Assembly: GCA_010015585.1 (NCBI GenBank) | Contig: ML975155.1 | Strand: one strand, 5' to 3' | DNA: 64,000 nt | Origin: Eremomyces bilateralis CBS 781.70 | Taxonomy: Eukaryota | Position numbers and translations under genes: made by a program | Notes under the pieces: model-generated | The model's database searches: none | Seen by the model: only the letters and a program-made list of their open reading frames with translations | What the model was told of the DNA's origin: nothing | Shown here: one piece after another, positions 7,649 through 12,061 of the stretch | How positions within the stretch are numbered: position 1 is the first letter of the stretch | How the letters are laid out: each line of letters begins with the position of its first letter

Positions 7649-9075
7649 ATGAGCGCCCCACAGGCCAACGAGGCGGAGAAGAATATCGAGATATGGAAGG
7701 TCAAGAAGCTCATCAAGAGGCTTGAGTCTGCTCGTGGTAACGGCACCTCCATGATCTCGCTCATTATCCGTAAGTTCTTGCATCCCTTGGCAGAGCGTGG
7801 GGATGCTGGTCGCTAACGGAGTTCTTATAGCTCCCAAGGATCAAGTCTCACGAGCGTCGAAGATGTTGGCTGAAGAATTTGTACGTGCAACTCCTGCCTG
7901 GTGCCCTGGAATATCGGATCGACTGACAGCTCGGTCAGGGTACCGCCTCCAACATCAAATCTCGTGTCAACCGTCTCTCGGTTCTCTCCGCCATCACAAG
8001 TACCCAGCAGCGCCTGAAGCTGTATTCCAAAGTCCCTCCGAATGGACTAGTCGTCTACTGTGGTGAAATCATCACCTCCGAAGGAAAAGAGCGCAAGATC
8101 AACATCGACTTCGAACCTTTCAAGCCGATCAATACGTCTTTGTACCTATGCGACAACAAGTTTCATACCGAGGCTCTTTCCGAGCTTCTTGAATCTGACC
8201 AGAAGTTCGGATTCATTATCATGGACGGTAACGGAGCTTTGTTCGGAACTCTCAGCGGCAATACGCGCGACATCGTCCACAAGTTCTCCGTCGATCTTCC
8301 GAAGAAGCATGGTCGTGGTGGTCAGTCCGCCCTGCGTTTCGCGCGTCTTCGAGAGGAGAAACGTCACAATTACGTCCGAAAAGTGGCAGAATTGGCCGTC
8401 CAAAACTTTATCACCAACGATAAGGTCAACGTCGCCGGCCTGATCCTGGCCGGTTCGGCCGACTTCAAAAACGACTTGAACCAATCGGACCTGTTCGATG
8501 GGCGTCTGCAAGCGAAAGTCATCAAGATCGTGGATGTTTCATATGGTGGCGAGAACGGTTTCAATCAAGCCATCGAGCTGTCCTCGGAGACTCTCTCCAA
8601 CGTCAAGTTCATTCAAGAGAAGAAGCTCATCAACAAGTACTTCGATGAGATTTCCCAAGACTCTGGGAAGGTTTGCTACGGTATCGATGATACCCTCAAG
8701 GCCCTCGAACTAGGCGCCGCTGACATCTTGATCGTCTTCGAAAACTTGGAAGTGACTCGTTGGACGCTCAAGAGCAGCCAGGGAAGCGAGATCATCCTCC
8801 ACACCACCAAGCAACAAGAGAAAGGCGACCGTTCCCAATTTATGGACAAGGACACCGGGCAAGAGATGGAAATCATCGAGCAAGGATCGTTCCTTGAATG
8901 GCTTGCGGAACACTACCGCGACTTCGGCGCCAACCTCGAGTTCGTCTCCGACCGAAGCTCCGAGGGCAACCAGTTCGTCAAAGGCTTCGGTGGCATCGGC
9001 GCCATCTTGCGCTACAACGTCAATTTCGAACAGCTAGCCGATTTCAGTGACGAAGATGAATTTTATGACGACTGA
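7649..9075 (+). CDS. SUP45: Eukaryotic peptide chain release factor 1 (eRF1)
   Basis: Exons 7649-7769, 7831-7880 and 7939-9075. Contains [15 protein letters not shown] and GRGGQS (GGQ) motifs plus the C-terminal [11 protein letters not shown]. Stop is TGA at 9073-9075. Confidence 0.98.
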
Positions 9076-9318
9076 CGGTTGGGCGACCTCGCCTACGAAA
9101 GCGAGGATGCTTTATTCGAGCCAGTGACGCCGGGCCATGCCGCGCCCGAGGTGGATCTGAGGGCATCTCGCGAATTGAACAAGCAGCTCGAGAACGCGGG
9201 TGGAGCTGGCGGGGTGCAGAAGCAGCTCAAGAATGCGGGTGGAGTGGGAGGAGTGCAGAAGCAGGTCGAGAAGGAGGGGAGGGGGCATTTGACGCCGGCA
9301 GCGAGGGCACGGTTGTGA
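9076..9318 (+). CDS. Putative stop-codon readthrough extension of eRF1 (80 aa, ends in PTS1-like ARL)
   Basis: In frame with eRF1 directly after TGA-CGG and open for 80 codons. Contains a 13-aa internal repeat and ends ...AARARL-TGA. Confidence 0.6.
   Translation, partial: RLGDLAYESEDALFEPVTPGHAAPEVDLRASRELNKQLENAGGAGGVQKQLKNAGGVGGVQKQVEKEGRGHLTPAARARL
9181..9275 (+). repeat. 39-bp tandem repeat (about 2.4 copies) within the eRF1 extension
   Basis: Units start at 9181, 9220 and 9259 and read KQLENAGGAGGVQ / KQLKNAGGVGGVQ / KQVEK. Confidence 0.9.
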
Positions 9319-9355
9319 AGTGATTCGCATATATGCTACGGGGATCGTTTGAATG

Positions 9356-9406
9356 GTCAGTAGGAGTTTCTTCTAGCTAATCTACCCACGCGGCTAACAA
9401 TCGTAG
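9356..9406 (+). promoter_or_regulatory. Predicted 3'UTR intron of the eRF1 mRNA
   Basis: Donor GTCAGT (9356), branch GCTAAC (9393-9398), acceptor TAG (9404-9406). At 51 nt it matches the size of other introns in this window. Confidence 0.7.
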
Positions 9407-10488
9407 GACGTTAAACGAGCGCCGAAAATATTGCGCAACATCAAATTTGCAGCCTGCAGCTCTATCGGTGCCCTCCGATAATCTGTCACATCATGTTTTT
9501 GGAGGGAGCAGCTTCGCCAGCATGATGCCGGATTGACAAGCCGCGGCATGCGTTGACGTCCCACGGGATTTCGCCATTTACCGCAGCTTCATGGCGGAGG
9601 TCCTCGGATCCGTGCTACCATGATCCGACAGGAGGGTTCCAAACTTGGCTGGAGTATCGATGCCGCGCAAGTCGAGGCAAGGGCACCTAAGGATTTCAAA
9701 GACGGAATCTCCAACTCACTCTTTTGGGTCTCCTTTGTACCAGTCATCCTTTCCATGGCTTATATCAAATTGCAAACCAGTTCATGTCTGCCGAACTTTC
9801 TCTATGTGAAACTCTAGCCGGTCATTTCATCTAGGTGTGGAAGTCAATTAACCAAGCCCTTTTATCGGACATGCCATTTTCAGCCCTTAGGTCTGTATAA
9901 CCTGGCATGGCTCTTTTCCTGACACCTCTTAGCGTCCCAAGGCAAAACGAGGTTTGGTATGGCTCCAATGACTGCTGCAACAACAGCGGTGTCTCTACGA
10001 TGAGATTTAGACATTATTCGAACACTTCCAAACACTTCCAACGGTTCGATCTGCTATATTACTCCTTATTTTTAATTCCTCTCACGGAGTGGCTCCCGCT
10101 ATCCCTGTTCCAGGTCGATGTCTATCTTAGCCGAACGTCGGCCAGCAAAGGTTTCACAACGTTAAACTCGACCACAACATGTCCGTTTCCTTCCCATTTA
10201 ATGTATCCGTACACTGCGCAGTAATCTATGCGGATTTTCTGCTAGTGTATGATATGAAAGAAGTTGGATTTCTGTTTTCACATTCACTGTAATGGATGCA
10301 GCGGCTCCAGCTGGTGTCTCGGGTTTGGACGTTCTTTCTTGTTTCTTGGGATGCCACTGCAACTGGCGACGAAGTCCAACACTACTCTACAACTTCTTAG
10401 ACTCCAGCTCCTAAACGACGTAATTGCTGCACGATATTGTCTACGTCCAGTTTAATTCATTTCATAGTTATCTAAGTCCTCAAGCAAA

Positions 10489-12061
10489 ATGGTGCTCAAG
10501 CCGAATAGTTGTGTCTTATATCAGAACGGAGTCATCATAACTTGCAACAAGAGGCGAGAAATATTCCTCGATGGGACTATTCTTGTGGAGGACGATCGAA
10601 TCGTCGCCATTGGAAAGTGGGATTTAGTTAAAACCCCTTCAAGTATGCAAAATGATTGCGAAATGATTGCGAAGTTAAGCTCTCCTGCTTTATACGTCAA
10701 TTCATTGACTCAAACACAGTACCATTCATGGTGGTGGATCTTCAAGAAATGGTCGTCGTTCCAGGTCTAATCAATACGCATGCTCATGTGGCGCACTCCA
10801 CCCTACGTGGGCTATTTAACCATTCCGACACTCGACCCCGGCAATTGCCAGGACTTCTTGCCACTGGAGTCCAGTTTCGAGGGAGATGATGGCTACATTG
10901 CCGCCTCGCTCACGATAGCCAAGATGATGAAGAGCGGAACAACCTGTTTCTTGGAGCCCATGCTGATGTACCGGACGAGGTCTTGACAATGTCATCCGAG
11001 CCGTCGGGGAGTCGAGCATCAGGACATGTCTGGTGAGTAAAACCTAGTTGATAGCCTAGGAGTGGATCTGATTCAATTAGGGAAGACTGGTCAGGGTTCC
11101 AGTGAGGAACGCGGAGATGAGCCTCGCAGATCCAGGAGAACAGGATGCCCGTAGAGTTACAATCCGGACTGTTGTGTACGACCACGGACGACATAACAAG
11201 TCATTCAATGGATGCGTCCACATATGGATTAGTGCCAGTACCCCGTCAGAGCCCTCCCAAGTCCATTTACCGTATGCAAGTATAGGTTGGAGGTGCCAAG
11301 AGAATGGCATCGGGATGACAATGCATTGCACTGAAACTCCAAGTGACCTTCAAATATTCAAGGAACACTATAAGAAATCGCCCATGCAATTCTGCGAGTC
11401 GGAATACATCGCCGGACCGAGGACAGTTCTCGCGCACATGGCTCATCTTGACCTCGACGTGGATCTAGATATTCTCCGCGATACGGAGACAAGCGTCTCG
11501 CATAGTCTGGCCAGCGACCTCAAGTTCAGCAACGGCACTGCTCCAGTTGTTGAGATGTTGAACAAAGGAGTCAACGTTGCTCTTGGCACGGGCGCTCCCT
11601 ATAACGACACATATGACATGTTCCGAGGGATGCAAGTCACAGCCATGCTCCATGCTGGGCAGATTCGATCATGGGGGGTCCTTATGATGGTTACGGTCTT
11701 TGGCGCACGGGCTCTCAGACTCGAGAACGATATCGGGAGCCGCGAAGTTGGCAAGAAAGCGGACTTCGTCGCCATCTCCAACAAAGGGCTACATTGCGCT
11801 CCATTCGATGCTACACTGTGCTTCGAAGGGGGTCTTGATCCAGTCACAGTGGTCGTTCATAGCTGCACAGGGAGAGACATCCAGCGAGTGGTTGTGGACG
11901 GAAAGACTCTCGTCCAGAACGGCAAACTGGTTTATATGGATGAGGGGCGAATTTGCGAAGCCGCAAGGCAAGCGGGTCGGGGGGTGAAGAATAGGTCAGG
12001 GGTTCTCTCCTCTAAGCACAACTGCTGCTTTGCTTTAGAGCCCATCCCCTCGCGTTGCTGA
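10489..12061 (+). pseudogene. Amidohydrolase (MTA/SAH deaminase, TrzA/AtzA-like) pseudogene
   Basis: PGLINTHAH, KSGTTCFLE, MHCTE and GSREVGKKADFV motifs are split across frames, with shifts near 10815-10845 and 10975. The metal-binding GTDG motif reads GTG. Confidence 0.8.

Follow-up and report, generated by a model that had tools for sequence, protein, structure and literature searches.

A candidate programmed readthrough track behind the eRF1 stop codon of Eremomyces bilateralis and its PTS1-like ending

The gene for the translation release factor eRF1 and the reading frame that continues beyond its stop codon were analyzed in a 64,000-nt stretch of contig ML975155.1 (assembly GCA_010015585.1) from Eremomyces bilateralis CBS 781.70; this whole stretch is called the window below. 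eRF1 is encoded on the plus strand in three exons. Exon 1 (7649..7769) was read from the open reading frame, with its ATG at 7649, and exon 2 (7831..7880) lies between the RNA contig joints 7769>7831 and 7880>7939, both of which have GT..AG borders. Exon 3 (7939..9075), which includes the TGA stop codon at 9073-9075, matches Pfam eRF1_1, eRF1_2 and eRF1_3 and is covered by an RNA contig (7939-9079) with a depth of 2659. The protein ends in ...DEDEFYDD, and its stop codon is followed by CGG (9076-9078). The initial annotation, which was made from the sequence alone, had proposed that the same frame remains open for a further 80 codons. We confirmed this frame and its coordinates: it covers 80 codons (9076-9315), ends in ...GHLTPAARARL and is closed by TGA at 9316-9318, with A as the following nucleotide. 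The RNA depth within this readthrough track (9076..9318, plus strand) was about 3021 at 9117-9205, indicating that the stretch belongs to the mRNA.

No Pfam match was found in the readthrough extension. Its 240 nt are rich in G (G 101, C 53, A 52, and T 34) and contain an in-frame 39-nt (13-codon) tandem repeat of 2.4 copies (9181..9272, plus strand; Tandem Repeats Finder, 84% match). The peptide QLENAGGAGGVQK, which the initial annotation had named as a product of the extension, is indeed encoded there, inside the repeat. The repeat makes up much of the extra length of the extension in the window, which has 80 codons as compared with 49-57 in the nearest relatives, and leaves the frame unbroken. 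Its successive copies encode KQLENAGGAGGVQ, KQLKNAGGVGGVQ and KQVEKEG.

Downstream of the track lies a spliced 51-nt 3′-untranslated-region (3′UTR) intron (9356..9406, plus strand), with the form GTCAGT...CTAAC(9394-9398)...TAG. A contig of the RNA run X1 joins 9355 to 9407 across GT..AG borders, no X1 contig retains the intron, and a blind intron predictor ranked it first. Since the X1 contigs also skip both introns of the eRF1 coding region, the run does contain RNA. The exon junction left by the 3′UTR intron is located 280 nt after the eRF1 stop codon and just 37 nt past the in-frame stop codon that follows it, at 9316-9318.

This arrangement corresponds to a described regulatory architecture. 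A 3′UTR that combines readthrough with nonsense-mediated mRNA decay (an RT-NMD 3′UTR) has been defined by an NMD-inducing element in the 3′UTR, a stop codon in a readthrough-promoting context, and a next stop codon in a non-inducing position (PMC5397192). A 50-nt rule for NMD has been reported (PMC6173133), as has NMD triggered by spliced 3′UTR introns in Neurospora crassa in a manner dependent on the exon junction complex (EJC) (PMC10578600, PMC6173133). All three structural features are present in the window and agree with the 50-nt rule. The intron lies more than 50 nt downstream of the eRF1 stop codon, as an NMD-inducing element would; the next stop codon is in a non-inducing position; and the main stop codon has a predicted readthrough-promoting context. 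The presence of a spliced intron 37 nt after the next stop codon makes the locus a likely instance of an eRF1 readthrough/NMD autoregulatory 3′UTR.

Relatives were collected by a metagenome scan with the eRF1 C-terminus, in which 493 stretches matched and 264 were found to encode a relative. The best 80 of these (74-86% identity), designated by L numbers below, were used together with the window, giving 81 rows; the number of distinct ones is 59-68 and varies with the stretch compared. Two rows are spliced forms of genes of the sample: L031 has the same flanks as L028 but lacks its 48-nt intron, and L023 corresponds to an L015-like gene from which a 54-nt intron lying inside the extension has been removed. 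These spliced transcripts confirm, in relatives, introns homologous to the 3′UTR intron of the window.

The stop context UGA-CGG (9073..9078, plus strand) is a known viral readthrough context. GAY-TGA-C was present at the end of eRF1 in 81/81 rows; the stop codons were located with the pattern GAYTGAC, so these 81 hits are hits to that pattern, for which the probability of a chance hit in the 305-nt span is about 4%. The triplets at +4 to +6 were CGG, CAA, CAG and a few others. CUA did not occur at these positions in any of the 81 rows, and the window, with CGG, likewise does not have the short UGA CUA context. UGA followed by C is reported to promote near-cognate decoding (PMC12233894), and UGA CGG is a listed readthrough context of Venezuelan equine encephalitis virus (VEEV) and Colorado tick fever virus (CTFV), with a stem-loop beginning at about +12 (PMC13517186).

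A hairpin, CCTCGC-CTACGAAA-GCGAGG (9087..9106, plus strand), begins 11 nt after the stop codon in the window and is conserved in relatives; it is a candidate stimulator of readthrough. A stem of at least 6 bp starting 9-13 nt after the TGA was found in 58/61 distinct sequences, as compared with 9.1% of 3050 shuffles. This conservation was judged by a per-sequence scan and not by MAFFT pair counts; the MAFFT alignment of the hairpin is ungapped and leaves the rows with 8-nt loops out of register, so the pair counts understate pairing. The usual form is CCTCGC-N5-8-GCGAGG; the stems of L068, L069 and L072 occupy this position with sequences unrelated to it. The loop is closed by a C-G pair in 40 rows, by U-A in 5 rows and by U-G in 2 rows.

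The position of the next stop codon was compared with that of the predicted 3′UTR intron. In frame 0, the next stop codon either lay past the predicted junction or preceded it by ≤50 nt in 52/59 distinct loci, as compared with 8/59 and 1/59 for the other two frames. Inspection by eye showed that several of the seven misses are mis-picked introns; in L058, L064 and L065, for example, a 5′ site can be seen closer by. In the 21 loci with a stop codon ≤50 nt before the junction, the gap ranged from 3 to 38 nt, being 18-38 nt in 19 of them and 3 nt in the other two. The nucleotide after the next stop codon was a purine in 41/42 tails, the exception being L069, the splicing of which is uncertain. 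The conservation of the open frame, the stop context and the end point in relatives indicates that the feature is real. Together, the stop context, the hairpin, the spliced intron, and the placement and context of the next stop codon argue strongly for a putative programmed readthrough track that ends at the 3′UTR intron and is conserved across the relatives. Programmed readthrough at UGA-C(GG), the stop context that the initial annotation had called leaky, is strongly backed by this conservation of TGA-C, hairpin and track.

The track ends in Ala-Arg-Leu (GCA CGG TTG; 9307..9315, plus strand), with Arg at −4. Peroxisomal targeting signals of type 1 (PTS1) follow the consensus [SAC][KRH][LM], which we adopted from the initial annotation. 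As had been stated there, the -ARL ending fits this consensus and is accompanied by an upstream basic residue. ARL has been called the canonical PTS1 of the Penicillium chrysogenum IAT (PMC2692852). Endings were counted among complete extensions at the first in-frame stop codon of the unspliced sequence, and the consensus ended the extension in 17/61 distinct loci (25/81 rows). The background frequency, taken over every stop codon in the six frames of these 3′ regions, was 26/4128, or 0.63%. The PTS1-like tails were SRL in many loci, SKL in L040/L043, ARL in the window, L003 and L017/L019, and AHL in L012; after predicted splicing, L033 also ends in ...SSKL, and L069, with an uncertain intron, in ...CSRL.

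The codons used for these endings varied by lineage (TCC/GCA/GCC/GCT/GCG at −3, AGA/AGG/CGG/CGC/AAG/CAT at −2, and TTG/TTA/CTG at −1). Every PTS1-like tail carries a basic residue at −4 to −6 and is free of acidic residues over its last seven positions, and all substitutions within the last three codons of the SRL clade (AGA/AGG/AAG and TTG/TTA) keep the consensus. On a tree built from 405 nt of eRF1, the backbone of which is weak, the PTS1 trait underwent at least 5 state changes, and a one-clade constraint on the PTS1 rows was rejected with a p-AU of 0.0009. From these comparisons, a predicted PTS1-type ending is found to recur in related fungi too often for chance. The initial annotation had suggested aligning relatives for a terminal PTS1, and the outcome was favorable in the nearest available relatives, where ARL is replaced by SRL or SKL. 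Such an ending occurred in the 17 distinct loci mentioned above and is not universal, many related lineages ending in ...SPLRSVMTAS, ...LRHMAMV or ...LQNN. Retention of the Leu-stop junction as a 5′ splice site (TTG TAA G = GTAAG) was considered as the main cause of the conserved ending and rejected, because L046 has TTA TAA, L003 has CTG TGA, and the nucleotides at −3 and −2 vary within the PTS1 residue classes.

Conservation within the extension is confined to two parts, namely, the first ~20 codons, which are conserved at the nucleotide level and cover the hairpin, and the last 7-12 codons. The core [ST][SP][PS]L[RK] is common to the non-PTS1 tails and to the T[TP]LRLSRL of the SRL clade. 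Since both PTS1 and non-PTS1 tails are conserved, selection appears to act on the C-terminal peptide in most lineages, with PTS1 explaining only some of them. One group of loci with conserved non-PTS1 tails comprises L038, L049, L057, L058, L063-L065, L072 and L074-L079, and the others comprise L005, L010, L027, L047, L048 and L051 as well as L015, L021 and L023; the tail peptides of these groups are RPSPLRSVMTAS, GRSSLRHMAMV and APSPLRAQLQNN.

The best explanation of the whole is that eRF1 has an autoregulatory RT-NMD 3′UTR in which the 80-codon frame serves as the readthrough track, with a PTS1 layer added to it, and we consider this combined reading moderately probable. Its two parts differ in strength. 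That an RT-NMD feedback circuit operates at the locus is quite probable, and as the main function of the readthrough, RT-NMD autoregulation has the better support; the spliced 3′UTR intron was absent from the initial annotation. That ARL functions as a PTS1 and takes extended eRF1 out of the cytosol is a proposal for which the chances seem about even.

The proposed circuit would work as follows. The junction is in an NMD-inducing position, where EJCs act, with respect to the eRF1 stop codon 280 nt upstream, and in a non-inducing position with respect to the next stop codon 37 nt upstream. When eRF1 is scarce, readthrough of UGA-CGG would increase, and ribosomes translating as far as 9318 would strip the EJC deposited ~20-24 nt upstream of the junction; with the EJC stripped, the mRNA would escape NMD and more eRF1 would be made. 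When eRF1 is abundant, termination at 9073 would leave the EJC in place and the mRNA would be degraded. The -ARL PTS1 appears to be under selection in the lineage of the window and in several related ones, and Pex5 would probably bind the readthrough by-product and carry it into peroxisomes, where it would be kept apart from ribosomes and eRF3. Since the extended plant eRF1 was found to be inactive in termination assays, the clearing of a useless or interfering isoform would be a reasonable purpose. A wider proposal, which we put forward tentatively and hold a little less firmly than the role of ARL itself, is that in filamentous ascomycetes the readthrough form of eRF1 is not inert: its last 7-12 residues would be under protein-level selection, with a PTS1 in the lineage of the window and at least four others, and Pex5-mediated import, possibly with partners attached, would tie the homeostasis of the release factor to peroxisomes as a means of clearing or sequestering the aberrant isoform.

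Several points weigh against this combined reading. The RNA evidence comes from one public run (X1), labeled 'RNA?' and kept as contigs, which give no transcript ends, strand or level. The contig that holds the spliced junction has a mean depth of 307 and runs into the next gene (about 10489-12061, plus strand; amidohydrolase family, Pfam PF01979), so that an extension of most eRF1 mRNAs past 9318 is no more than likely. The splice weights of the blind intron predictor were general consensus values, and it mis-picks some loci, such as L026, L045 and L058. The hairpin of the window, taken alone, is not significant (fold z-score −1.56), and covariation is thin because the stem arms are nearly invariant. 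The best match to the window has 78% DNA identity in eRF1, and the sample contains no relative of the same genus. As for the extension as a protein, the numbers of extra states in the SRL clade (34/40/47 at codon positions 1/2/3) show no codon periodicity, suggesting that most of the extension drifts like non-coding DNA; the possibility of a conserved protein domain spanning the entire extension was dropped on the same counts, which are not coding-like. As for targeting, the group of PTS1 rows tested as a single clade was named after the tree had been seen. In L041/L042, the stop codon after ...ARL (TTG TAA in L017) is CAA and the frame runs on to the intron; these two loci look like a lineage that lost the PTS1 ending.

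The chief rival to the combined reading is that the RT-NMD circuit is the sole function and that ARL is not used for import, the tail being conserved for another purpose, which could be a nascent-peptide effect at the next stop codon, a degron, or an interaction motif. We regard this as a substantial possibility, although clearly the less probable of the two. The extended plant eRF1-1 is reported to be inactive in termination assays, and its extension is described as unconserved and motif-free (PMC5397192). The middle of the fungal extension evolves freely, and 44/61 distinct loci have no PTS1. Moreover, the non-PTS1 clades keep tail peptides of their own at the amino acid level, with synonymous variation (RPSPLRSVMTAS, GRS[SN]LR[HN]M.MV, APSPLRAQLQNN and SSPLKVGTAV) and with the core shared with the SRL clade, so tail conservation need not mean peroxisomal targeting. 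However, tails of the PTS1 consensus are about 40 times as frequent as the background (17/61 vs 0.63%), and they occur in lineages whose tails are otherwise dissimilar (the window, L003, L012 and L017), with different codons for the same residue classes and with the changes in the SRL clade staying within the consensus.

Two further explanations are much less probable than the combined reading. The one closest to the initial annotation, in which readthrough serves a peroxisomal eRF1 isoform with a role of its own and the coupling to NMD is irrelevant, would account for the recurrence of the PTS1-like tail and is in line with the reported production of peroxisomal isoforms by readthrough in fungi (PMC4207609). 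We nevertheless consider it very improbable, given that the near-universal features among the 59-61 distinct loci are UGA-C, the hairpin, and a next stop codon by the intron, with PTS1 confined to 17/61. Peroxisomes contain no ribosomes, so release-factor activity there would be without a substrate. The last explanation, which is disfavored and which we rank lowest of all, is that chance alone keeps the frame open in a 3′UTR rich in G, which would reflect neither programmed readthrough nor targeting. Two of the three plus-strand frames are open over the extension and each minus-strand frame has one stop codon, and an open run of at least 80 codons arose in 4.8-7.5% of 5000 dinucleotide shuffles under three region definitions; the openness of the frame in the window alone carries little weight. 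Chance is nonetheless hard to reconcile with a frame that, among the three, is the only one open to the intron across relatives (52/59 vs 8/59 and 1/59), with the conservation of TGA-C and the hairpin, and with the spacing between the next stop codon and the 5′ splice site downstream of it, which is 18-38 nt in 19/21 loci and 3 nt in the other two.

The circuit as such is known, in plants and, by title, in Neurospora, and the sorting signal is probably new. By its title, Kurilla et al. 2020 (FEBS Lett 594:3504) reportedly describes the autoregulation of Neurospora crassa erf1 via readthrough and 3′UTR-intron NMD, which would be the same circuit, likewise in a filamentous ascomycete, and the authors are reported to propose the circuit for many fungi. 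In plants, readthrough of eRF1-1 rescues the mRNA from intron-triggered NMD, and the level of eRF1 feeds back on readthrough (PMC5397192). The locus in the window resembles plant eRF1-1 (Nyiko et al. 2017, PMC5397192) in the gene concerned, the leaky stop codon with C at +4, the 3′UTR intron, and the non-inducing position of the next stop codon, as well as in the negative feedback expected from competition between eRF1 and near-cognate tRNA. It differs in the readthrough signal, which is UAG-CAAUCA in plants (PMC5397192) and UGA-CGG with a conserved hairpin in the window. In addition, whereas the plant extension is reported to be unconserved and motif-free (PMC5397192), the last 7-12 residues of the fungal one are conserved within clades and form a PTS1 in some of them.

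The signal also has viral counterparts. Like the type II readthrough signals of VEEV and CTFV, it combines UGA CGG with an RNA stem at a fixed short distance, but the viral stem-loops span 78-177 nt, in contrast to the core hairpin of 6-8 bp at eRF1, which starts from +15 when the U of UGA is taken as +1 (PMC13517186). The dosage of eRF1 sets the accuracy with which all stop codons in the cell are read. Going beyond the papers compared here, the fungal signal consists of a nearly invariant UGA-C with a fixed-distance hairpin, resembling viral type II sites, and the extension ends in a conserved peptide, unlike in plants, with a textbook PTS1 in several lineages. Autoregulation of bacterial RF2 (prfB) takes place by a +1 frameshift inside the coding region and, unlike the circuit proposed here, involves no NMD, intron or targeting signal. 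What the two have in common is that a release factor senses its own level via recoding at the stop codon of its own mRNA (PMC5397192).

If the PTS1 works, eRF1 would be the first translation factor known to us with a peroxisome-directed readthrough isoform, and organelle import would be used to dispose of the product of regulatory recoding. By title, Freitag 2012 reportedly deals with cryptic targeting to peroxisomes brought about in fungi by stop-codon readthrough, and LDHB is said to be a peroxisomal readthrough case in animals. As with the cryptic peroxisomal isoforms (Stiebler 2014, PMC4207609), a low-level readthrough product of eRF1 would gain a PTS1 that is absent from the main product. 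Those isoforms, however, are metabolic enzymes that use the short UGA-CUA context and perform enzymatic work in the peroxisome (PMC4207609), whereas eRF1 is a translation factor with UGA-CGG and a hairpin, and its targeting would likely serve to dispose of a by-product. A literature search of titles and abstract starts found no peroxisomal or PTS1-bearing eRF1 isoform, a point on which Kurilla 2020 and the supplements of Freitag 2012 could bear; eRF1 is mentioned 0 times in Stiebler 2014 (PMC4207609).

A second conserved nucleotide element was seen by eye at 9157..9172 (plus strand), with the sequence CTGAGGGCATCTCGCG in the window and CTGACGGCNCYTCGC in relatives. The CTGACGGCNCYTCGC element is found, for example, in L012, L015, L017 and L022, ~60-90 nt after the stop codon, and is not obvious in the SRL clade. 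It resembles the TGACGG...CCTCGC at the stop codon, and its YCTCGC could pair with the GCGAGG arm of the hairpin to form an alternative helix. Selenocysteine recoding, for which a UGA followed by a hairpin might be taken, was rejected: an Rfam scan of 8900-9800 with E values up to 10 found no selenocysteine insertion sequence (SECIS), its only matches being two sub-threshold, small nucleolar RNA-like ones, neither at or near the gathering score. To our knowledge, filamentous ascomycetes lack selenocysteine machinery.

In many relatives, the last eRF1 codon is interrupted by an intron (GAC G|gt...ag|AT TGA C), which places the leaky stop codon 2 nt past an exon junction; examples are L005, L008, L012, L017, L022, L033, L047, L058, L074, L077 and L080, and the window and the SRL clade are without it. 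In the rows with this intron, GAYTGAC directly follows a YAG 3′ splice site, restoring ...FYDD-stop. In view of these introns, alternative splicing around the stop codon was considered as well, and it can be set aside for the window, where the last codon is uninterrupted.

The RNA assembly of the window is fragmented into short contigs at 9079-9246, around the hairpin and the repeat, among them several 60-nt pieces of low depth with one differing letter; these breaks probably arose during assembly from the repeat and from errors at high depth. A single RNA contig of 3008 nt (window 9246-10600 and beyond) joins the spliced eRF1 3′UTR to the next same-strand gene, and the eRF1 and amidohydrolase transcripts either overlap or are read through.

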